DNA from: a virus
DNA length: 64,000 bases
Reading direction: 5' to 3' (one strand)
IMG/VR virus record: IMGVR_UViG_3300024978_000008
Coordinates: 14,319-78,318 of that record
The notes under the pieces are model-generated. The model did no database searches and was not told the origin of the DNA. It saw only the letters and a program-made list of their open reading frames with translations. The position numbers were made by a program, and so were the translations under genes. This document shows positions 7,988-61,074 of this stretch, one piece after another (position 1 is the stretch's first letter; the number at the start of each line of letters is the position of its first letter).

Positions 7988-9454
7988 TTAAAATCCAGAA
8001 GCTGTTGATGTACTCATCTGTCCTTGAGTCGGAGCAGCCGTGTTGGGTGCTTGATTAGCTAGATTGTTAGTTTGGTTTGGTTGATTAGTTTGAACTGGTT
8101 GCTTTTTTTGATCATTAGTTTGATCTGACTTGTATTGGGCGTTCAATTGAGCTAAATTAATTCTAGCATTCAATTCAGCTAATTCCAAACGATAGGCAGT
8201 TGTTTTATAATTTCTAGTTTCATTATCGTCAGTAGGATTAACTTTATACTTTACTTGAAGTTGTAATTTTTCTTTTTGTAAAGCTTGGGGGTTGTCAAAA
8301 TTATCTTCTAATAATTTTAACGCACTAGACAAAAACGACGTTGATTCATTAAAACTTCCATGAGTTGCATTATACCGTGCAACTTGTGCATATTTTTTAG
8401 CTTCTTTTTCTTTCTTCTTTTCGGCTTGAATTTGCGCTTCAACTCGTGCTATGTCTTCTTGACGGCGTACTTCTTTATCAGCGGCTATAGCAGACCATTC
8501 AGCTTGCTTGGCTCTTGCCTCTTCTGCTGCGGCATCAGCTTGAGCTTCTGCAGCACTTGCCTGAGCTTTCAACATAGCTACAATTTGTTTCAAAATAGAT
8601 TCTTCATCTTCGACAGGTTCCGGTTCCATGCCAAAATCTTCAACATTATCACCCTCTTCCATATCAGGATTTAATTCATTTGCCGAACCTTCAATTCCTT
8701 GTTCAGAGTCATTTTCTGAATTTTGGATATTGTCCATATCCATATTATCCATGTCACTCATTTGATCTTCGTCATCAAAATCATTTTGTTCATCAAAAGA
8801 ATTAGAAAAATCATCCGATTCTGGCATTACTTTATTGGAATTCATCGGTGTTTTGGAAGCTTGATCTGCATTGTATACTACATCTTTAGGAATGATGGGG
8901 AAATCTACGGTGATGATTTCAAATCGATTACGCAAATTAAATAAAATTTCGGCTAATGAATTACCTTTTAGAGATATTCCATTAGATTTGTTATCTTTAT
9001 TGTCTGCTAATAGTTTAGCAATAGTTTCTTCAAATTCTTGAGCTTGATCCGCTCTAACTGTAACGCGCATAACATTATTTTTGTCATCTTCAATGCCATA
9101 TGAAACAACACCGACATCAGCACCAGAAGTTTCTACATCAGCACCTTTCAAGCGTGAAACTATATCATTCATGTCAAAATCTTCAGTAACTTTTCTACGT
9201 AAAAGAAAAGCTTTAAATCCATTCATTTTGGATTTATCTTTCTTTAATTTTTTAGCGGCTGCAATTTTTTCACGCATCTTAGCATACTTGGCTTCTTCTT
9301 CATTATGTTCTTTGGAATCTTGATTCCAACGACGTTCATCATGTCTAGCCGAGCCAGCTTTACGTCTACTGTCACTATCCATATTAACAGCGATTGAACC
9401 TGCGCCAATTGAACCACCTGAAGCGGTTTCATTAATAACTGATTTTGAACTCAT
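7988..9454 (-). CDS. Acidic hypothetical protein, probable head-internal/core protein
   Basis: 488 aa, D/E-rich centre, coiled-coil; exact TATAAATA at 9479-9486; several I/L/V-x-E sites. Confidence 0.55.
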   Translation of the reverse strand: MSSKSVINETASGGSIGAGSIAVNMDSDSRRKAGSARHDERRWNQDSKEHNEEEAKYAKMREKIAAAKKLKKDKSKMNGFKAFLLRRKVTEDFDMNDIVSRLKGADVETSGADVGVVSYGIEDDKNNVMRVTVRADQAQEFEETIAKLLADNKDNKSNGISLKGNSLAEILFNLRNRFEIITVDFPIIPKDVVYNADQASKTPMNSNKVMPESDDFSNSFDEQNDFDDEDQMSDMDNMDMDNIQNSENDSEQGIEGSANELNPDMEEGDNVEDFGMEPEPVEDEESILKQIVAMLKAQASAAEAQADAAAEEARAKQAEWSAIAADKEVRRQEDIARVEAQIQAEKKKEKEAKKYAQVARYNATHGSFNESTSFLSSALKLLEDNFDNPQALQKEKLQLQVKYKVNPTDDNETRNYKTTAYRLELAELNARINLAQLNAQYKSDQTNDQKKQPVQTNQPNQTNNLANQAPNTAAPTQGQMSTSTASGF

Positions 9455-12175: not shown

Positions 12176-12311
12176 TAAGATTCTCCGAAATTTAAATCTA
12201 CTATTATTTATATTCCAGAAAGTAAAACCTTTAAAAATGACCATTATTTCTCTTATTAATTGCTATACATGTAAACAAAATAATAAATAATGATATAAAA
12301 ATTGAGTTATT

Positions 12312-13049
12312 ATGAATTCTTTCAAAAACTATTTGCTTACTGAATATGTTAATTCCAAATCTAATGAAATAGAATCTATGTTGGTTCTACAAAAGGTCAT
12401 CGATATGGTAGATGATGGACATGTGGATTATGATGCATCATCTATAAAGATTAATGTGGGTCATCTTATAAAAAATAAAAAGTATAATAATCTTTCTATT
12501 TTGATCATAAAAGGTGAAGATGATGTTAGAATAGCTAGACATAATGAAAATAATGATTATGTTATTGTAATTTCCACAAGTAAGTTGCCAAGTAGAGAAT
12601 CTATAGACACGTTCTTATCCTCACAAGAGCGTTCTGAAAAATTCAAAACCTGCTTTATTAAATTTATGAACGATGCTGTTTTTGACGATTCTGAAAATAA
12701 TCAAGATTCTGCATATGAAAAGCGTTCGAATCTTAATACTAGAAAATCTTTTGAAGAATCATATGTTGAATTAATCAAAAAGTTAAATGGTGAACACGAA
12801 CAATATTTGACAGCAAAAAAAGAATTGGATGATAAATTATCTGGAATTCATGATGATCTTGGACATAAAGAAACCATGAAACTAGGTCTTGATAAGCTTA
12901 AAAAAGATATGATGGGTTCTTCAGAATCTGAATTTAAATCCAAAGCGATCAATCTCTATGGCAAAGATAATTATAAAGCTCTGAATAAAGAATTCAAATC
13001 TAAACTGGATTCGCGTTTAACTGATTATTATGAGTCAAAAATCCAATGA
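12312..13049 (+). CDS. Hypothetical protein with capsid-targeting-like N-terminus
   Basis: MNSFKNYLLTE resembles T4 internal-protein leaders (MKTYQEFIAE); AATAAATA box upstream. Confidence 0.6.
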   Translation: MNSFKNYLLTEYVNSKSNEIESMLVLQKVIDMVDDGHVDYDASSIKINVGHLIKNKKYNNLSILIIKGEDDVRIARHNENNDYVIVISTSKLPSRESIDTFLSSQERSEKFKTCFIKFMNDAVFDDSENNQDSAYEKRSNLNTRKSFEESYVELIKKLNGEHEQYLTAKKELDDKLSGIHDDLGHKETMKLGLDKLKKDMMGSSESEFKSKAINLYGKDNYKALNKEFKSKLDSRLTDYYESKIQ

Positions 13050-13759
13050 GTCATTCTAAATATTTTAAAGAATATTTACAAAAATCATTAACTGAAACCT
13101 TCGAAACAGATACTTCTGAACGAACGGACACAGATACTTCATATGATATACCAAATATGCGATTTGAACGATTGAAAAAATTACGTAAAAGCATGGGTAA
13201 AACTTCTGGTTCATTTGGATATGTATCCCCAGATGATACAGATGATACCATGGTCGTTAAACAACCTCATGAACCAGAAGAAAATCTAAAAAAAGATGGA
13301 TACTTCACATATATTAAATATATCGTTGATCATAAATTGGCACAACAGAATCCATATTTTCCCAGAGTCTATCGTTTCGAATTTGATAAAAACAAACAAG
13401 GTCAAGAATATTATAAAATACAATTAGAGAAATTAATTAATCTAAAAGAATTAGATTCTACAGAAATTATACAATTAGGGTTGCGCACATTCAAAGGATT
13501 TCAAAAGCATGTAGAATTATATCAAAAACATGAAGGAAGTATTATAGAAGCTTTTGTGGCGATGCTTATTGAATGTACTCAATATTCTAAACTTAGTTTG
13601 GCTAATGATCAAGAATTAGTTGAAGCTATAAAAATTATTAGCAATATTATAGACAATAATTCTAATCAGAAATTTTTCTGGGATATATCACAGTATAATG
13701 TAATGGCTAGACGAACGCAATTAGGTCTACAATTAGTTTTTGTAGACCCAATGGCTTAA
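13046..13759 (+). CDS. Protein kinase-like protein, T7 gp0.7-like
   Basis: Gly loop TSGSFGYV, VVK lysine, NPYFPRVY, catalytic loop WDISQYNVM, metal-binding VDPM at the extreme C-terminus, same order as T7 PK. Confidence 0.7.
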   Translation: MSHSKYFKEYLQKSLTETFETDTSERTDTDTSYDIPNMRFERLKKLRKSMGKTSGSFGYVSPDDTDDTMVVKQPHEPEENLKKDGYFTYIKYIVDHKLAQQNPYFPRVYRFEFDKNKQGQEYYKIQLEKLINLKELDSTEIIQLGLRTFKGFQKHVELYQKHEGSIIEAFVAMLIECTQYSKLSLANDQELVEAIKIISNIIDNNSNQKFFWDISQYNVMARRTQLGLQLVFVDPMA

Positions 13760-14544
13760 ACATCAATGATAAAATTGTCTTTAAATGTTTTGTTCTGATT
13801 ACCATAAATTTTGTGAGCATATCCTCTCGGATTAGAAATCATTCTTGTTTTTCCTATTTCATAATCTGATGAATTATGACAATGCCCTGAAATCCAGAAA
13901 TCTATGTTACTGTCATAGATGTAATCTTCCAATGGAGTGTAATACGCTCGATTTATTGAATTCCCTCTATATGATGACATAGTTGATAATTCACATGCTG
14001 CATGATGTGTAATTACTACAATTTTTGATGTTGTGGCATTGTCTACAGCATTTTTTATAAAATTCAAATCTTTGCGATGTTCATTTATTGTCATTATTGG
14101 CAATAATTTAAATTTATAAGGTTCGGTGGATGTACCTGCTCTAATATAATGATAATCATTCATTCTAGCTTGAGCATCCATCATAACAAAAGGGTCAGAA
14201 TCACCCAAATCTGTCCATAATGTTGCACCTATTATTGTTACATCATCGATAACAATAGATTGACGTTGTAAGATTATTACATTCTGAAGATGAACTATTT
14301 TTTCATTGAGTTTAGCTACAGATCGTGGAATCGCACCGGCATAATATTCATGATTACCAAAAATTATTAATATTTTTTTATAATTATTTGACAATTGCTC
14401 CAAAAATTGAACAAAAGTTGAAAGATGGTTTACTTCACAAGTGTCTCCCGCAAGAATCAACACAGTCTCTTTAGAATCTTCCAAAGGAATATCCATATAT
14501 GGTAAAACATCAATATGTAAGTCGCTGAGTATTTTGATTTTCAT
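13756..14544 (-). CDS. Calcineurin-like metallophosphoesterase
   Basis: SDLH, AGD, GNHE, THH, GHCH motifs. Confidence 0.92.
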   Translation of the reverse strand: MKIKILSDLHIDVLPYMDIPLEDSKETVLILAGDTCEVNHLSTFVQFLEQLSNNYKKILIIFGNHEYYAGAIPRSVAKLNEKIVHLQNVIILQRQSIVIDDVTIIGATLWTDLGDSDPFVMMDAQARMNDYHYIRAGTSTEPYKFKLLPIMTINEHRKDLNFIKNAVDNATTSKIVVITHHAACELSTMSSYRGNSINRAYYTPLEDYIYDSNIDFWISGHCHNSSDYEIGKTRMISNPRGYAHKIYGNQNKTFKDNFIIDV

Positions 14545-14550
14545 CTCAAC

Positions 14551-14579
14551 ATGTTATCATGTAGCGTATTGAAAGTCAA
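14551..14579 (-). promoter_or_regulatory. Sigma70-type early promoter of the metallophosphoesterase
   Basis: Minus strand TTGACT-17 bp-TAACAT with extended TG. Confidence 0.6.
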
Positions 14580-14598: not shown

Positions 14599-14625
14599 TT
14601 AAGGACGGTGCTTCTCCGTCCTTAA
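14599..14625 (-). terminator. Intrinsic terminator after the tail sheath gene
   Basis: ttaaggacgg/ccgtccttaa arms, 7-nt loop, T-run on the minus strand. Confidence 0.8.
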
Positions 14626-16868: not shown

Positions 16869-18458
16869 TTATGAATATAAATTATTAAAATTTTTTATGA
16901 AGTGCAACTTGCCGCAATCCCATATTTTATCACATTGTTTATCATCATTTAGCAACTCTTTATATAATCTACGTGATGTAGATTTCTCTTTTAAATCTAC
17001 ATAATAATGTTTTGGTTCTGATATGTGATCTAATTCAAACCCACATTTTATAAAATGATATCCATTATTCCATCTTCTATCACATGTTACTGTTATTGAT
17101 GATGGTGAATTAAATTGGACAAAATGATATAATATTTTTTCTACTGCAGTTTCTATGTCAACATTTGGAGTGAATTCATAATTCAATATATCATATTTGT
17201 TATCATAAATTGAATTAAACGACATAATAGCAACAATGTTATTATTGTATTTTAAGCCTATATTAACATTTGCAGATTGATATCCATCAAAACAATTTTC
17301 ATTGTAAAATTTTATGGTTTCCAACTCTGTAGGAATAATTACTTCACATTCCATTCCGCTTATTTTATGTTTTTCTAACAATTGTTCAATTTTGGTAATA
17401 ACTACATGTTTTTTATGTAGCCATTCATTTTCCAATATTTGAATACATCTATAACCAGCTTGTTCAGCAGCGATTGTTTTGTTTAAATGATAATTTTTAT
17501 CTTTACCACCTTTATTTTCACTGTGCCAGTATAATCCATTATATTCAATGACCAATTTATTTTCTTTAGATACTATATCCAACTCTTGAGGATAGATCAC
17601 AGTTCTATCTTGCGTTATAACATTTTTATCATATTTGGATACAATATCAAATAATTCTTTTTCGGCTTTTGGTTTAGAATTACTATAAAGTTTAATCTCG
17701 ATTCCAAATTTTTTCATTTTCTTGCCTAATGCAGATTTGCTTATGTTCAAATTTTGAGCAATTTCGGTACATGACATATGTTCGTCATGATGCAAAGTTT
17801 TTAAATAATTTTTATCATTTAATTTCTGATATTGATCATCAGTAAATTTTAATTGTAATGAATTAACGCGATTATGATTTTTTAAATATTTTTCTTTGCG
17901 AAGTTTTGCCAAATGTTTATTGTAATTTTCACCATACTTTTTTAATAAAGTTTTTTTGACTTTTTTAACCAAAATTTTTGATTTTAATGGAACAGTTACA
18001 TTATAATTATCCATTAAGGTTTGTTTAGCTTTATTTCTTATTTCTAGACTCTTCATGGGATTAGTAACACCATATCGTTCTTTCATGGTGACATCTCGCT
18101 TTGCAAACGATGATTCAATATAATATGGACATAATTTTCCGCAAGTTGACGCATATTTGTAACCACCAGTTCTTCGAAATGGTAATTTGTTGCCACATTT
18201 ACATAATGGAATATCTGTTATAAAATTTATAATTCTATAAATTTTCTCTATAAATTCAACATTCTTATTGTCTGCACAATATTCATCAATTTCTGTAGAT
18301 AATTGTGGATAGTTTAATAAAATTTTTTTATGTTTCCCGTTAACTCTCATCTGATGAATATCAACGCAATCATCCGATAATAATAAATTAGTTTTGATCA
18401 ATTTTTCTATTAACGATAACCCTGTCAAATCATGTAAAATTTTATGCATTCTATTCAC
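16869..18458 (-). mobile_element. Free-standing homing-endonuclease-like gene (Zn motif, YGVxNP repeats, HTH, PD-(D/E)xK domain)
   Basis: CKCG...CGKLC, RYGVTNPM repeats, ELDIVSKENKLVIEYNGLYWHSE, IWDCG C-terminus; paralog of 58443..60146. Confidence 0.75.
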
Positions 18459-54186: not shown

Positions 54187-55923
54187 ATGGAAATACCTGA
54201 TGCGAATCATGGCAAATTAGTAAAATTCTATAAAATAATTACGCCTGAATCTGCACGTACAAGTGTGGAAAGTAGTCAAGATATTCTTGGTGATCATGGC
54301 TTGTATGGTAATTATAGTTGGGTCCATAAACTATTACAAGGTAGCACTGTAAGGTTACAACGTTATCGCGAATTCGATATGATGGATGAAGATACTGATG
54401 TTAATAGAGCATTAGATATCATTACTGAAGAAATTGTAGGTAATAATCCAAAAGCTGAATTACCCATGTCTATAAAGATTACTGCAGGAGAAGAACAACA
54501 AATCTCTAGCAGAGTCCTTGTAACTTTAAATGCAGCATTAAAAACATGGTGCAACATACATCGATGGAATCGAAGATTATTTCATACAGTTCGTAATACC
54601 ATTAAATATGGAGATTCATTCTTTTTCAGAAATAAAAGCGTAAATCTTCCATTTATTTTTTGTCATCCAAAGAATGTTGTGGGGGCCATTGTATTAAAAG
54701 ATGATGTGACAGATGTAAAAGGTTGGCAGATTAGATCAGATTATAAAAAAGCTACACAAAATGTCAATTATACATTAACTTCAACTGCCGAATCATATAA
54801 CATTGAAAACTATTCAACAGCTGAAATTGTTCGATTTGGTTTGCATGATGATATGAGTGATGAAGCTCCTTTCTCACGATCAGTGCTTACTGCTGCATAT
54901 AAAGTTTTTAAACAAAAACAAATGTTGGAAGACTCAATTTTAATCTACAGAATCTCTCGTGCTCCCGAAAAGCGAGTATTTAAGATAGAATTAGGAAATA
55001 CGCCACCACATTTACGTGCTCAAATTCTAGAAAATGCTAAAAATGAAATAAAACAAAGAAAAATCCCATCGTTCAGTGGTGGTGGTAATGGTGAACAAAT
55101 GGATTCAATTTACTCACCGATTTCACAAAATGAAGATTTTTTCTTTTCTATGAAAAATGGTGCCGGTTCCACGGTTGAAACCCTTCCCGGTGGAACATTA
55201 GGCAATGGTGAAGATGCTAACTTACAATACTTTTACCATAAAATGTGGAGAGCATTACGTATTCCACAATCTTATATGGATAATAGTACCGAAGGTGGTT
55301 CAATATTTAATGATGGAAAAGTTGGCATCGCTTATCAACAAGAAATAAAATTTACATTATATATTGAATCTTTACAAGTTCATTTCGAAGATGTATTAGA
55401 TAGAGAGTTTAAAAAATTCTTATTAGATCAAAATATAAATTTCGATCCCACAATATTCAGAGTAGTTTTGCCAGAACCATCGAATTATAAACAATCTCGT
55501 GAAAATGAAATAGACCAAGCTTTGGTAAGTCTTGCTACTAATGCTATGGGTATTGATTGGCTTTCTCGTCGTTTCATTGGAACGAAATATTTACAACTAA
55601 CTAAGAATGAAATGATATTGAATGACCGTATGAAAAGAGAAGAATTGGGTCTTGATCCAAACGGTGGCATCAGAGATATGGCTAAAGTATATTCTCCCGA
55701 AAATGCTGATTCTGGAGGATTTGACGGTGGATTAACTTCAGGTGGTGGTAATCTTGGAACTGATGTCGGTCCTATTGGATTAGGTAATGAACCTGATGAA
55801 GAATTAGGTGGAGAAGAATTTAATGCTGAAGAAGAATTAAATAAACCCGTAGGTAATGAAAATAAATCTACAACTCCTGAAGCTAAACCAAATGAAACGT
55901 CAAAAACACCTGAAAATGTATAA
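54187..55923 (+). CDS. gp20: Portal protein (gp20-like)
   Basis: QRYREFDMMD, LEDSILIYRISRAPEKRVFKIELGN, EDFFF, VETLPGG, ALRIPQSY. Confidence 0.95.
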   Translation: MEIPDANHGKLVKFYKIITPESARTSVESSQDILGDHGLYGNYSWVHKLLQGSTVRLQRYREFDMMDEDTDVNRALDIITEEIVGNNPKAELPMSIKITAGEEQQISSRVLVTLNAALKTWCNIHRWNRRLFHTVRNTIKYGDSFFFRNKSVNLPFIFCHPKNVVGAIVLKDDVTDVKGWQIRSDYKKATQNVNYTLTSTAESYNIENYSTAEIVRFGLHDDMSDEAPFSRSVLTAAYKVFKQKQMLEDSILIYRISRAPEKRVFKIELGNTPPHLRAQILENAKNEIKQRKIPSFSGGGNGEQMDSIYSPISQNEDFFFSMKNGAGSTVETLPGGTLGNGEDANLQYFYHKMWRALRIPQSYMDNSTEGGSIFNDGKVGIAYQQEIKFTLYIESLQVHFEDVLDREFKKFLLDQNINFDPTIFRVVLPEPSNYKQSRENEIDQALVSLATNAMGIDWLSRRFIGTKYLQLTKNEMILNDRMKREELGLDPNGGIRDMAKVYSPENADSGGFDGGLTSGGGNLGTDVGPIGLGNEPDEELGGEEFNAEEELNKPVGNENKSTTPEAKPNETSKTPENV

Positions 55924-55963: not shown

Positions 55964-56527
55964 ATGAACGCAAAAGAATATTTAAAACAGTTTGTACAAG
56001 CTATAGTCAACGGTAATAACGATGAAGCTAAGGTTGCACACAAACAATATACAGAATTGAAATCTAAAGAAATTTTCAAGAATAATGTCACTGAAGCTAA
56101 ATTGACTCCGGGGTATTCCGATTATGCTATTGATAGAAGCGATGATGGTGATCAAATAACCAACAGGCAGCGTGGAATAAATTATGAAACAGATGATTCT
56201 CCAATGAAATTCGAAGTTTCATTTTTTCACCCTGATAGAGATAATGAAGGACGCGATACAACATATCCAGCCACAGAAATAGATAAAAAATACACTAAAC
56301 AATTTGCGACCATGCGCCAAGCTGAAAAATATCTCAATTCTCCTTATGTATTAGATATGATTAAAAATTATAGAAAAGCAAACCAAAGTATTCGTCCTAG
56401 TGAAAATGATATAGGATCGGTTAACTACAATCCTGAAACTAATTTGGTAGGATATATAAATCAAATTAATTTAACGAAAGCTGGGCAAGCTGATTTTGAT
56501 GAAGTTCAATCGGAAAGATTCTATTGA
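55964..56527 (+). CDS. Prohead core-like protein (gp67-like N-terminus)
   Basis: YLKQFVQAIVNGNNDEAKVA...VTE; between portal and protease; late box at 55938-55945. Confidence 0.55.
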   Translation: MNAKEYLKQFVQAIVNGNNDEAKVAHKQYTELKSKEIFKNNVTEAKLTPGYSDYAIDRSDDGDQITNRQRGINYETDDSPMKFEVSFFHPDRDNEGRDTTYPATEIDKKYTKQFATMRQAEKYLNSPYVLDMIKNYRKANQSIRPSENDIGSVNYNPETNLVGYINQINLTKAGQADFDEVQSERFY

Positions 56528-56811
56528 AAATCCTTGACGTTTTACCATCATTAGATGAAAAATTTGATCCTTCTAACAGAGATTATATCAAAACCACTGT
56601 TCCTGTAAAAAATGTTATAGGTGCTAAGTTACCAAATGCGTTTGATAGCACATATCATAAACCAGTAGTTTATAGAAACGGCGATTCAGTAGATGACGAA
56701 ATCGGTTTAACCTTTGATAGTCACGATTATGACAAGGATGTGAACATATCCAAGGATGGTATCCATTCCAAGAAAAGTAGAAAGAAGAAGTTAGACAATG
56801 AAGATGAATAA
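56524..56811 (+). CDS. Hypothetical head-associated protein
   Basis: TTG start coupled to the previous stop; leader MKILDVLPSLDE. Confidence 0.55.
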   Translation: MKILDVLPSLDEKFDPSNRDYIKTTVPVKNVIGAKLPNAFDSTYHKPVVYRNGDSVDDEIGLTFDSHDYDKDVNISKDGIHSKKSRKKKLDNEDE

Positions 56812-56995
56812 ATGTTTTAAAGATTACATAAATTCTATTAAGGGTTCTCCATATTTTTATTTGGAATCTAATACAGATGATTTCAAAGAAGCTGAAAAGG
56901 AAGCTGGAATAGATAAAACGCAAGATGAAAAAGATGAACAAAATAGCAAGTCTTTATTACAATATTTGCTAAATATTTCAGCTACCCACCAATAA
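56798..56995 (+). CDS. Small hypothetical head-associated protein
   Basis: FKDY...YLE leader, acidic. Confidence 0.5.
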   Translation: MKMNKCFKDYINSIKGSPYFYLESNTDDFKEAEKEAGIDKTQDEKDEQNSKSLLQYLLNISATHQ

Positions 56996-57009
56996 TGAGG
57001 AAATTATAA

Positions 57010-57738
57010 ATGAGTATGAAAAAGTTTTTAGAAGAATTCTTTGACGCGGTTGTTCAAAAGAATGATGAAGCTGCAGCTGCAGCGTTTGATGCATACGCTC
57101 CTGCAAAAGTTGTTGCTATGATTAAAAGCGTTAAAGAAGCCGAATCACCTATTAAATTAAAAGGTGATGATGTCTATGTTAACGGAAAAAAGGTTGGATG
57201 CCTTAAACATGATGTTGATAAAGATGAAAATCTAGAGTTCATCCCAGATCAAGGTAAGAAAGCTAAATTCGCCAAACTTCCCGATTTGTATGCTCATTTG
57301 AGCAAAGAATATAAGTTAACCGAAGCCAAAGAAGAAAAACAACTTTGGGGACTTTATTGTGGCAAAAGAGGTTCTGGTAAACTTGGATTAGAATTTTCAG
57401 GTACTAAGAAAGAATGTGAAGAAGAAAAACATTCTTATAAAGAAGATGATGCAAATAAAGATTACGTTTATAAAATCGTAAGAATTAATGATAATTCTCC
57501 ACAGACTATTAAAGAATCTGTGAAGGACTTTGAATCAGAAGTTCAGAGTCTTGCACCACGCTTAAAACTTAAGAAATTGGATGCATTCACTGATGATGAA
57601 GGTGAAGGTCTTGATGCTGATGGGGACCATGATGGTCCAGAAGATGCTAAAGAATGTGATGAAATTCGTCAGAAGCCTTTGAAGGATTTAATCAAAAAGG
57701 TTAAAGATGGTGGTCGTGAAACTAAGGTGAAAGGTTAA
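57010..57738 (+). CDS. Prohead core-like protein (gp67-like N-terminus)
   Basis: KKFLEEFFDAVVQKNDEAAAAAF...VKE; repeated LTE/IKE sites; directly upstream of the protease. Confidence 0.55.
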   Translation: MSMKKFLEEFFDAVVQKNDEAAAAAFDAYAPAKVVAMIKSVKEAESPIKLKGDDVYVNGKKVGCLKHDVDKDENLEFIPDQGKKAKFAKLPDLYAHLSKEYKLTEAKEEKQLWGLYCGKRGSGKLGLEFSGTKKECEEEKHSYKEDDANKDYVYKIVRINDNSPQTIKESVKDFESEVQSLAPRLKLKKLDAFTDDEGEGLDADGDHDGPEDAKECDEIRQKPLKDLIKKVKDGGRETKVKG

Positions 57739-57743
57739 TAGTA

Positions 57744-58367
57744 ATGGAACTTCTAATTGAAACATATACTGCAGATGAAGCCAATGTTATTACAGAATCG
57801 GTTAATGATGGTAAGGAAATTTATTTAAGTGGTAGATTTTTATCCGGTAATTTAAAAAATCGTAATGGTAGAATTTATCCAGTAAATGAAATTATGCAAG
57901 CTGTTACATCATTGAACGAAGGTATTAACCAACATGGTTCTATTGCTGGTGAATTAGATCACCCTGCTGATAGGTTAACTACTGAACTTAAATATGCTTC
58001 ACATGTTATTACAGAAATCCATATGGACGGTGATAATGCAGTGGGAAAAATGAAAATTATGAACACTCCTAATGGACTTGTAGTGAAGGAACTGATTAGA
58101 AATGGTTTTAGACCTGACGTATCAAGCCGCGGGGCAGGAAATGTAAATCAAGATGGTATTGTTGAAGGATTTATTATTCAAACAATTGACATTGTAAATC
58201 AAGCATCTGGCATTGGATGTAGTCCGATATCAGTTTATGAAGCAATTCAAGATAATAAATTTGGTCGCAGATCAATATCGTTAGCCGAAGCATTACTTGA
58301 AGATAAAGATGCTCAGAAATACTTCATTGTTGAGGTTAAAAAATTTATGAATTCTTTAAAATTTTAA
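57744..58367 (+). CDS. gp21: Prohead core protease (gp21-like, S77)
   Basis: KNRNGRIYP, GELDHP, SHVIT, GKMKIMNTPNG, VSSRGAG, TIDIV..AS. Confidence 0.95.
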   Translation: MELLIETYTADEANVITESVNDGKEIYLSGRFLSGNLKNRNGRIYPVNEIMQAVTSLNEGINQHGSIAGELDHPADRLTTELKYASHVITEIHMDGDNAVGKMKIMNTPNGLVVKELIRNGFRPDVSSRGAGNVNQDGIVEGFIIQTIDIVNQASGIGCSPISVYEAIQDNKFGRRSISLAEALLEDKDAQKYFIVEVKKFMNSLKF

Positions 58368-58442: not shown

Positions 58443-60146
58443 ATGCTTTTAAATGAATTAAAAGAACTATTGATGAAACCAAGGTGGCAAACATCATTTG
58501 CTAAATCTTCTAGACCGATAGTGACAGAAGCTAAAATGTTGATGGTAGAATTGACCAATTTTTTACCTCAAAACGCATCGTATTCTCAACGTGCTTGGCA
58601 TATACTTAATGATACCGACGAAATACCAAATTGCATTGAATGTGGTAAAGTTACACATTGGGGAAGTTGGAACTCTAGGACAACTTATTCTACATTTTGC
58701 TCTGATATATGTGCTAAAAATTCACCATTAACCAAAGAGAAGCGGCGTCAAACTGTATTAAAAAAATATGGTACAGAATATGTAACGCAATCTAAAGTTT
58801 TTAAAGAAAAATCCGAAGCTACTAATTTAAAGCGATATGGTACAAAAAGTTCATTATCAAACGAAGATGTTCGCAATAAAATAAAAATTTCTAATTTAGA
58901 GAAATATGGTTCAGAAAATCCTTTCGGTTCAGATGAAATTAAGAACAAGATAAAAAATACCATGATCGAAAAATATGGAGTAGACAATGCACGCCATATT
59001 TCAGGAATGTCTGATAAGATTAAAAAATTGAACATTAAAAAATATGGAGTAACACATCCATCTAAACTGGAATCAGTTAAAAATAAAAATAAAGAGACAA
59101 ATTTAGCTAAGTATGGCAAAAATCATATGCAGCAACATATATCAGATGATGCATTAACATTATTAAATGATGCATCGTGGTTAACCGATCAACATCATAA
59201 CCAAAAAAAAACTATTACTGAAATAGCAGAATTTTTAGGAATATATGATACTACCTTAAACAGTTATTTTAAAAAATATAATATCGAAACTAAACATTTT
59301 TTCACATCGGCACCCGAAAAACATATATGTGAATTTCTAAGTACATTTAACATAAAATATATACAAAATTGCAGAAATGTAATATTTCCATATGAACTTG
59401 ACATTTATTTACCGTCTCACAATTTAGCTATTGAATATTGTGGATTATATTGGCATTCAGAGATTCGAATACCTAAAAATTACCATAAAAATAAATATAT
59501 GTTATGTAAAGAAAAAGGAATAAGACTTATTCAGATTTTTGAACACGAATGGCTTCAGAATAAAGAAATTGTGAAATCGAAAATATTGAATGTATTAAAA
59601 ATATCAAATGTGCAAAAAATTTTTGCACGCAAAACTATCATAAAAACTGTTGAATCACAAATTAAAACAAATTTCTTTAATCAATATCATATCCAAGGAA
59701 ATGGATCGAGTTCTATCAATTACGGATTAACATATGGAAATGAATTAGTAGCTGTTATAGGATTTATTAAAAATCATGACGGTTCATTTACATTGAACAG
59801 ATATGCAACATCGTGTCGTGTTGTTGGCGGGTTTAGCAAACTTTTGACACATTTTGAAAAACAATATAATACGCCTAAAATCATAACTTTTGCTGACTTA
59901 CGATGGAGTGAAGGTAGTTTATATTACAATAACGGATTTATATTAGATAAAGAATTAAATCCTGATTATTGTTGGACGACTGGTAAAAAAATATTTCACA
60001 AATTTAATTTTAGACATGCAGGTATGAAAAATAAATTAAAAAATTATAATCCATCTTTATCGGAAACTGAAAACATGCATAATCATCATTATTATAGATT
60101 ATATGATTGTGGTAAACTGCGATTTGTAAAAAACAAAACATCTTAA
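58443..60146 (+). mobile_element. Free-standing homing-endonuclease-like gene (Hef-like)
   Basis: CIECG...FCSDIC, about 5 KYGx.N repeats, HTH, ELDIYLPSHNLAIEYCGLYWHSE, HIQG...LNRYA...GGFSKL...YADLRWSEG, LYDCG. Confidence 0.8.
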
Positions 60147-60588: not shown

Positions 60589-60702
60589 TTATGAATTCCG
60601 TTATTGTAACTATTATTTATCACTTGCAATTTAAAATCAAGCCAAATAATCGATAAAAGTTTTAGACTTGACTTCATCTTTAATGATGATACCATTAATA
60701 GT

Positions 60703-61074
60703 ATGGAAAATTTGATAATTACTCTGAATAAACCTAATAGATGTTGTGGAAGTACAACAGTTATACAAGAACTGTTGTTAAAAAGATTTAATCCAGAAAT
60801 GACATATATTATAATTTCAAAAAATCAACGGCATTCTAAAACATTTATAGAAGAAATATCATATAAATGTACTATACGAGGGAAAAATATTAATCACAAT
60901 CTATGGAAACCGTATTCATATAATAACATCACAATGGATCGGTTACGCGGTTATAGAAATTTAGTAATAATATTAGTGGATTATTCAAACATGTGCAAAT
61001 TTGATTTACATGAATTAACTTGCATTGTAAAGAATTCTGTAATAATTATAGAAAATGATTCCACATTAATTTAA
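60703..61074 (+). CDS. Hypothetical protein resembling a degenerate P-loop fragment
   Basis: RCCGSTT, LRGY...ILVD; sigma70-like promoter TTGACT(60668)-16-TACCAT upstream. Confidence 0.5.
   Translation: MENLIITLNKPNRCCGSTTVIQELLLKRFNPEMTYIIISKNQRHSKTFIEEISYKCTIRGKNINHNLWKPYSYNNITMDRLRGYRNLVIILVDYSNMCKFDLHELTCIVKNSVIIIENDSTLI

Follow-up and report, generated by a model that had tools for sequence, protein, structure and literature searches.

The window analysed here is a stretch of 64,000 nucleotides from the IMG/VR virus record IMGVR_UViG_3300024978_000008 (positions 14,319 to 78,318), part of an 89.7-kb fragment with an estimated completeness of 26%. It carries a two-gene operon, ORF1-ORF2, whose second gene encodes a minimal protein kinase of the bacteriophage T7 gp0.7 (T7K) type. 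The operon is predicted to be transcribed late in infection, from a T4-type promoter, and both of its proteins begin with a leader resembling the capsid-targeting propeptides of T4 internal proteins. The reading preferred here, to which slightly less than an even chance is given, is that the kinase is made late, packaged into the capsid and injected into the next host. The coordinates of the features discussed are collected in Table 1; L-numbers denote related loci, G001–G003 genomes of relatives and P-numbers homologous proteins.

Homology, catalytic motifs and fold all place ORF2 in the T7 gp0.7 family. An exhaustive HMMER search with ORF2 retrieved 744 cluster representatives at E<=1e-3 (clusters at 50% identity), mostly stand-alone proteins of 200–250 residues, whereas a word-indexed protein search recovered only ORF2 itself. 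The T7 0.7 kinase family phrog_15752 was matched by 48 of 80 ORF2 relatives (best E-value 3.1e-16) and by ORF2 itself at 6.6e-4, and the hhalign comparison of the kinase family profile with T7 gp0.7 gave a probability of 96.1% (E 3.1e-9) over 159 columns, covering T7 residues 65–224. In the alignment of 80 sequences G55, E128, D213, N218 and D234 are invariant and K72 is conserved in more than 90% of the proteins. The glycine loop GSFGYV contains G55, the β3 lysine K72 lies in the motif VVK, the catalytic loop WDISQYN provides D213 and N218, and the motif VDP holds D234-P235, while E128 may correspond to the helix-C glutamate. The AlphaFold model of ORF2 has a pLDDT of 92.5, and all the Foldseek and VIA matches listed for it are eukaryotic-type kinases or pseudokinase domains (MK2, TTK, VRK, PINK1 and MLKL). 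These structural alignments reach Z-scores of up to 8.0 over 129–148 residues, extending from about residue 19 to the C-terminus and stopping where the targets have their DFG. When the kinase profile was searched against PDB sequences, only chance matches to helical proteins were returned. The C-terminal host shut-off/DNA-binding domain is absent from ORF2, as residue 237 is the end of the protein, three residues past the DP. The family profile match, the motifs and the kinase-only fold matches together point to a minimal kinase of the T7K type that lacks the C-terminal domain of T7 gp0.7 and is built from the N-lobe and the catalytic core up to the DFG-equivalent DP. The catalytic motifs of ORF2 are intact, and phosphotransfer is its predicted activity. 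A preliminary description of this DNA had already delimited ORF1 and ORF2 as in Table 1, with ORF2 coupled behind ORF1, and had proposed a kinase fold of the T7 gp0.7 type for ORF2; both the gene calls and the assignment are borne out, and the two genes overlap by 4 bp (ATGA).

Homologues of T7K with the same architecture have been reported in jumbo phages without an assigned function (PMC13645617; PMC11895373), and T7K itself disarms many bacterial defences via promiscuous phosphorylation (PMC13645617). Among 50,697 isolated phage records the ORF2 subfamily is restricted to the Stenotrophomonas phages CM1 and RAS14, the RAS14 kinase being WAX21561. Mini-kinase genes also occur in tandem arrays of two or three (L018 4729-6624, L021 22-2717 and L030 1648-2855), and the complete 307-kb phage G002 carries four kinase copies at three loci. 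In addition, fused double-kinase proteins of about 450 residues are found (P0003 and P0063); P0003 (450 residues) was considered as an ORF1-kinase fusion and rejected, being a tandem double kinase.

The timing of the kinase is predicted from a promoter class that exceeds chance by far. Of the 30 copies of the heptamer ATAAATA in the window, 20 lie 20–45 nt upstream of same-strand gene starts, where 0.33 would be expected (P ~1e-32); an extra copy precedes the shorter start of the tail tube gene. The genes behind ATAAATA include those for the sheath, gp15, the portal, a 3345-residue protein and ORF1, and the heptamer is the late-promoter element of this phage. The AATAAATA box upstream of ORF1, described previously, is a real member of this class. 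The exact T4 octamer TATAAATA was rejected as the informative element, the heptamer with a variable first base being informative instead. The octamer is depleted overall: 8 copies were found against about 19 expected from shuffles, most of them just upstream of structural genes, a depletion consistent with selection against stray late promoters. At the same spacing the box precedes the ORF1 orthologues of L003, L005, L020, L024 and the cultured phages XacN1 (GC 49%) and RAS14 (GC 41%), with differing flanks. ORF2 has neither a late box nor a promoter of its own; since it is translationally coupled to ORF1 behind the late box, the operon is predicted to be late. The earlier proposal that the kinase is made late with ORF1 stands as a promoter prediction, supported by the conserved box and the ATGA coupling.

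Late boxes similarly precede kinase genes elsewhere. ATAAATA is found 26–41 nt upstream of kinase homologues at seven loci, L009 (cultured RAS14), L010, L012, L015, L029, L030 and L031, and in RAS14 the box GATAAATA lies 29 nt upstream of WAX21561. In L016, L018 and L023 the heptamer stands 11–12 nt upstream of the kinase ATG, a short spacing that reflects either wrongly annotated starts or nearly leaderless late transcripts. With boxes upstream of the ORF1 orthologues and of many homologous kinases, the kinase subfamily appears to be generally late-transcribed, the opposite of T7 gene 0.7. The latter is an early class I gene, expressed from host-RNA-polymerase promoters. Even if packaging were disproved, the subfamily would be one that is used late, unlike the early kinase of T7, and the late-promoter element NATAAATA common to the clade offers a practical handle.

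The N-termini of both proteins carry the second line of evidence. The leaders MNSFKNYLLTE of ORF1 and MSHSKYFKEYLQKSLTE of ORF2 read as first described, and their proposed likeness to the T4 capsid-targeting sequence with a gp21-type L-x-E end is supported by sequence. In the T4 IPIII leader, residues 4 and 7 function in targeting and residues 8 and 10 in processing, and the T4 propeptides comprise 10–19 residues (PMC9026906). In the T4 genome IPII and IPIII start with MKTYQEFIAE, IPI with MKTFKEF...ITE and Alt with MELITELFDEDTT. The F4 and Y7 aromatics of ORF1 are, as a likeness of sequence, in exact register with IPIII (Y4, F7) and IPI (F4, F7). The L-T-E at residues 9–11 is the only [LI]-x-E site in the entire ORF1, an N-terminal [LIV]-x-E is present in 22 of 22 family members (20 from the database, including the window protein, plus XacN1 and RAS14), and F4 is invariant in an alignment of 18 ORF1 sequences. 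The 17-residue extension of ORF2 is real because no start codon other than ATG 13046 is available before the conserved N-terminus of the kinase family. Within this extension the segment FKEYL displays the aromatic-x-x-aromatic-Leu arrangement, shifted by +3 from the T4 register, and the L-x-E site is aligned across the kinase family. The pLDDT is about 65 for residues 1–20 and above 90 beyond, with most of the kinase structural alignments starting at residue 19–20, right after the LTE. The homologous kinases P0018 and P0009 present MRSFKEYLKE and SFKEYLIE, respectively, the former a conservative match to the T4 sequence at every position. Most kinase homologues start with MK[LI]xE[LI][IF]xT, resembling the N-terminus of T4 Alt, whose start is close to the kinase family consensus MKLxEIFDT. 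A T4-derived pattern fixed beforehand (aromatic-x-x-aromatic-hydrophobic, then [LIVM]-x-E) occurs 6 times in the 28,291 residues of the genome, and two of the six occurrences are the N-termini of ORF1 and ORF2 (P 0.006).

Leader-type starts extend to unrelated proteins. In other phages the proteins encoded beside the kinase that share its MK[IL]xE[IL] start include DUF6267, several unassigned PHROGs and two proteins with weak family matches. The latter two, kinase-flanking proteins of jumbo phages with an N-terminus of the MK[IL]..[IL] / L-x-E type, like that of the kinases, have matches below the Pfam cut-off: L022 5061-5978 to an ADP-ribosyltransferase (ART-PolyVal, E 2.7e-4) and L010 6701-7444 to a nucleotidyltransferase (NTP_transf_2, E 1.7e-4). 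The window itself encodes, at 7988-9454 (-), a 488-residue late protein behind a TATAAATA box, acidic, coiled-coil-like and conserved in L020 and L024. It consists of a charged N-terminal part of 76 residues followed by an internal Met and NGFKAFLL...VTE, which is a leader motif of the ORF1 type. This protein may be scaffold- or core-like, or translation may begin at an internal start. Common descent of ORF1, ORF2 and the 488-residue protein was considered and rejected, as BLASTP of ORF1 against each shows homology in the short leader alone.

A protease of the gp21 family, which leader cleavage calls for and which the preliminary description had named only from T4, is encoded in the window, and this is the enzyme that would cut after L-x-E. 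The three small core-like proteins in the portal-protease interval show no database family match. Their N-termini are MNAKEYLKQF, MKMNKCFKDYI and MSMKKFLEEF, and in two of the three a T4 gp67-like segment follows a K-x-[YF]-L N-terminus. The leader motifs, the unrelated leader-tagged neighbours and the gp21-family protease fit a T4-type capsid-loading system with enzymatic cargo.

We infer targeting, cleavage, packaging, injection and kinase substrates from the sequences, as follows. The ORF1 and ORF2 proteins would be made late from their shared operon, and the leader would carry both into the scaffolding core of the prohead. There the gp21-type protease would cut after Glu11 of ORF1 and Glu17 of ORF2, and the trimmed proteins would be retained in the head and pass into the next cell together with the DNA. 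The injected kinase would then phosphorylate host proteins before phage gene expression, as a kinase counterpart of T4 Alt. Extended to the T7K-like mini-kinases at large (more than 700 clusters, nearly all uncultured, in T4-related jumbo phages), the same proposal is slightly more tentative: these proteins would be late-made, capsid-loaded, protease-trimmed and injected, phosphorylating host proteins, defence systems among them, before expression begins. Mini-kinases are frequently encoded beside other leader-tagged proteins, including the weakly ADP-ribosyltransferase-like and nucleotidyltransferase-like ones, and the proposal, if true, would amount to a general delivery of enzymes with the genome. 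The T7 kinase needs to be expressed first, whereas a kinase preloaded in the capsid would act from DNA entry onward, which would give a new view of the earliest minutes of giant-phage infection and of the defences open to pre-emption. Cultured Stenotrophomonas phages possess both ORF1 and the kinase, and cultured Xanthomonas phages carry ORF1.

Several observations weigh against packaging. The ORF2 leader is three residues out of T4 register, and most members of the kinase family would lose 5–8 residues, fewer than any proven T4 targeting sequence. The leader motif is short and was partly defined after seeing the data, its residues K, F, Y, L and N abound in proteins of a genome with 32% GC, and four further [LI]-x-E sites lie inside the kinase fold. 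The conserved N-terminus may in part be the first structural element of that fold. The G001 kinase is located among genes provisionally read, from N-terminal sequences and sizes, as those for nrdAB and topoisomerase II; such surroundings resemble a region of early or middle genes, though a CATAAATA box precedes the kinase. A search of the virion-proteomics literature on carriers (RAS14/CM1, XacN1, RsoM2USA and RaK2-like phages) retrieved nothing covering these proteins, the XacN1 and RsoM2USA virion studies identifying major gel bands only. Late expression, finally, is compatible with a kinase that is not packaged. Such a kinase, working late in the producing cell, is a less likely but substantial alternative: its targets could be, for example, phage assembly proteins, or host defence or stress proteins with which the cell senses late structural proteins, the T4-leader likeness being coincidental and the N-terminus structural or translation-related. 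The late promoter evidence fits an unpackaged kinase equally well, and so does the disarming of many defences by the promiscuous T7K (PMC13645617). Residues from about 18 on lie in the confidently modelled fold, so that the conserved N-terminal block may be structural in part, and only 5–8 residues precede the Glu in most kinase homologues. An unpackaged kinase, however, leaves unexplained the shared start of unrelated neighbouring proteins, the aromatics of ORF1 at positions 4 and 7 with its single L-x-E, and the similar N-termini of the phage's own prohead-core-like proteins.

ORF1 has no match in Pfam, PHROG or NCBIfam. Its homologues number 20 in related jumbo phages and are also found in XacN1 (ORF352), Xoo-sp13, CM1 and RAS14 (WAX21621). 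The position is constant, between the tail tube and sheath/gp15 genes, which lie on the opposite strand, and ORF1 is a core late gene. The AlphaFold model of ORF1 has a pLDDT of 82; fold searches with it returned one close uncharacterised viral homologue (BFVD) and, from the PDB, only generic helical-bundle matches (Z <=8.2), so that an assignment of function from the fold was rejected. The kinase lies downstream of ORF1 in the window, L020 and L024, and the two genes overlap or abut in the window and L020. This repeated order would suit a functional pair in which ORF1 serves the kinase as regulator, chaperone or substrate adaptor and is not an independent head protein, a relationship that is improbable in view of the remaining loci. 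In L003–L006, XacN1 and RAS14 no kinase follows ORF1 (kinases there are elsewhere or were not sought), kinases at other loci stand alone or in tandem arrays, and the window kinase is nearer to the kinase of G001, encoded at another locus, than to its positional equivalents in L020 and L024. The last relationship suggests repeated insertion of the kinase downstream of a convenient late promoter.

The gene converging on ORF2 encodes a metallophosphoesterase, and its position, convergent with ORF2 and overlapping it by 4 bp, is as first described. The enzyme class is likewise secure (PF00149 9e-11; phrog_1649 3e-57): the five metal-site motifs D8-x-H10, G33-D34, G63-N64-H65-E66, H180 and G220-H221-x-H223 are invariant in 36 homologues. 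The NCBIfam matches are weak and limited to acc_ester, YfcE and CpdA, and a single-sequence PDB search retrieved nothing. The PDB profile matches listed (E<=0.01) are generic metallophosphoesterases, Lmo2642, purple acid phosphatases and Dbr1, with no PPP phosphatase among them. The PPP signature GDxVDRG is absent; motif II reads AGDTCEV, without the VDRG. No ATAAATA box is present within 110 nt upstream of the gene, and the sheath terminator is predicted to separate it from late sheath transcription. The phosphoesterase had been credited with a sigma70 promoter of its own; the TTGACT-17-TAACAT match exists and its position is plausible, but such matches are at chance frequency here (31 found vs 32.6 in shuffles). 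With only 6 nt between the end of its -10 hexamer and the ATG, a transcript from this site would have almost no leader, and the window's clearly strong sigma-70 promoters lie 24–45 nt from start codons. A near-identical layout is found at 60667-60696 (+), before a 123-residue ORF at 60703. In both genes TTGACT is followed after 16–17 nt by TG-n-TA(A/C)CAT, with the -10 hexamer ending 6–7 nt before the ATG, and this could mark a small class of leaderless or near-leaderless transcripts.

The preliminary description combined these elements into one model: a packaged and injected kinase whose action is reversed or limited by an early protein phosphatase, namely the adjacent phosphoesterase. The convergent overlap, the absence of a late box, the terminator and the sigma-70-like match agree with this model, as does the complete relative G001, where kinase and phosphoesterase are only 6 kb apart; moreover, metallophosphoesterases include protein phosphatases. 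A dedicated early antagonist is nevertheless very improbable and the claim is not upheld, given a pairing that is not conserved, phosphodiesterase-type family and PDB matches without the PPP signature, and the chance-level promoter. The expected synteny in relatives fails: the phosphoesterase adjoins the kinase at none of 16 other kinase loci. L020 and L024 have ORF1-kinase without the phosphoesterase and L003–L006 have ORF1 alone, all between the tail tube and sheath genes. In G003 kinases are present and no phosphoesterase was found in the 79% of the genome covered, and in G002 the phosphoesterase lies about 10 kb or more from any of the four kinases. The phosphoesterase family occurs in 198 isolated phages, only two of which carry this kinase subfamily, and in phage Munch the homologue adjoins DNA ligase and dCMP deaminase, which also speaks against an antagonist. 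To judge by its sequence, the phosphoesterase is most likely a non-late accessory gene independent of the kinase, with phosphodiesterase activity on nucleotides or nucleic acids; an activity on phosphoproteins is less probable.

Table 1 Coordinates of the kinase operon, the convergent phosphoesterase and related features in the window.
Feature	Position	Strand	Remarks
T4-type late promoter box AATAAATA	12282-12289	+	22 nt between box and ORF1 ATG
ORF1, conserved protein predicted to be late, 245 aa, first in operon	12312-13049	+	no family assignment
ORF1 leader MNSFKNYLLTE, candidate capsid-targeting propeptide	12312-12344	+	F4, Y7, L8, L-T-E 9-11
ORF2, predicted T7 gp0.7-family mini protein kinase, 237 aa, coupled to ORF1 via ATGA	13046-13759	+	
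ORF2 leader MSHSKYFKEYLQKSLTE, candidate propeptide ending L-T-E	13046-13096	+	F7, Y10, L11, L-T-E 15-17
Calcineurin-like metallophosphoesterase, 262 aa, convergent with ORF2 (4-bp overlap)	13756-14544	-	
Sigma-70-like match TTGACT-17-(TG)TAACAT	14551-14579	-	9/12 positions plus TG extension
Intrinsic terminator after tail sheath gene	14599-14625	-	10-bp stem, 5 G-C pairs, T run
Portal gene	54187-55923		upstream of prohead protease gene
Three small core-like proteins, 187, 65 and 242 aa, portal-protease interval	55964-57738	+	T4 gp67/gp68 position
T4 gp21-type prohead protease (Peptidase_S77)	57744-58367	+	PF03420 6.5e-19; phrog_207 1.5e-42

The window has a GC content of 32% and the gene set of a distant T4 relative, comprising PolB, a DsbA-like protein, gp15, tail tube, sheath, baseplate hub, portal and the gp21-type prohead protease. 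Proteins identical to those of the window are present on contigs of 257–295 kb, and by its ORF1 homologues the phage belongs to the clade of Xanthomonas phage XacN1, Xoo-sp13 and the Stenotrophomonas phages CM1 and RAS14. A megablast search of the region against isolated phages gave zero matches. The source is an uncultured, XacN1-like, T4-related jumbo phage. Its tail and head gene blocks are interrupted by large homing endonuclease genes (phrog_3339, DUF7487) at 16869-18458 (-) and 58443-60146 (+), the first with a perfect TTGACA-16-TATAAT promoter. Two such genes separate the kinase from the sheath gene in L020 (6572-9746) and L024 (6510-9691). Because homing endonucleases occupy this gap in relatives, the interval between tube and sheath genes seems to be a hot spot of insertion in which use is made of the late promoter.

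Compared with known systems, the phosphoesterase resembles the Icc/CpdA/YfcE-type phage enzymes of phrog_1649 in its five metal-binding motifs and shares 37–40% identity with RaK2-like, Vibrio and other jumbo-phage homologues. Unlike its Munch counterpart, placed among DNA-metabolism genes, it is found within the tail genes and converges on the kinase. ORF2 shares with T7 gp0.7 a homologous kinase domain with the glycine loop, the catalytic Lys, the D-x-H-x-x-N-type loop and a DP replacing DFG. Like the jumbo-phage T7K homologues (RaK2-like: Munch, G17 and Sharanji; PMC13645617), it is devoid of the C-terminal domain, and in ORF2 a Met takes the place of the Val of DPV, loss of this Val having also been reported for those homologues (PMC13645617). 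In contrast to T7 gp0.7, ORF2 has merely 237 residues and ends three residues past the DP, stands behind a T4-type late promoter and not among the early class I genes, possesses an N-terminal leader ending in L-x-E, and belongs to a mostly uncultured subfamily with two isolated phages. The comparison with T4 rests on a short N-terminal propeptide with aromatics three apart, a hydrophobic residue and a Glu cleavage site, as in IPI, IPII, IPIII and Alt, on a gp21-family protease in the genome and, as with the T4 internal-protein leaders, on the same type of N-terminus in unrelated proteins. The leaders differ from MKTYQEFIAE, the ORF2 motif is shifted by three residues, and packaging and cleavage are here predicted. 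The cargo would also depart from the T4 internal proteins in being a protein kinase, and to our knowledge a protein kinase in a phage head has not previously been reported. As with T4 Alt, that cargo would be a host-modifying enzyme.

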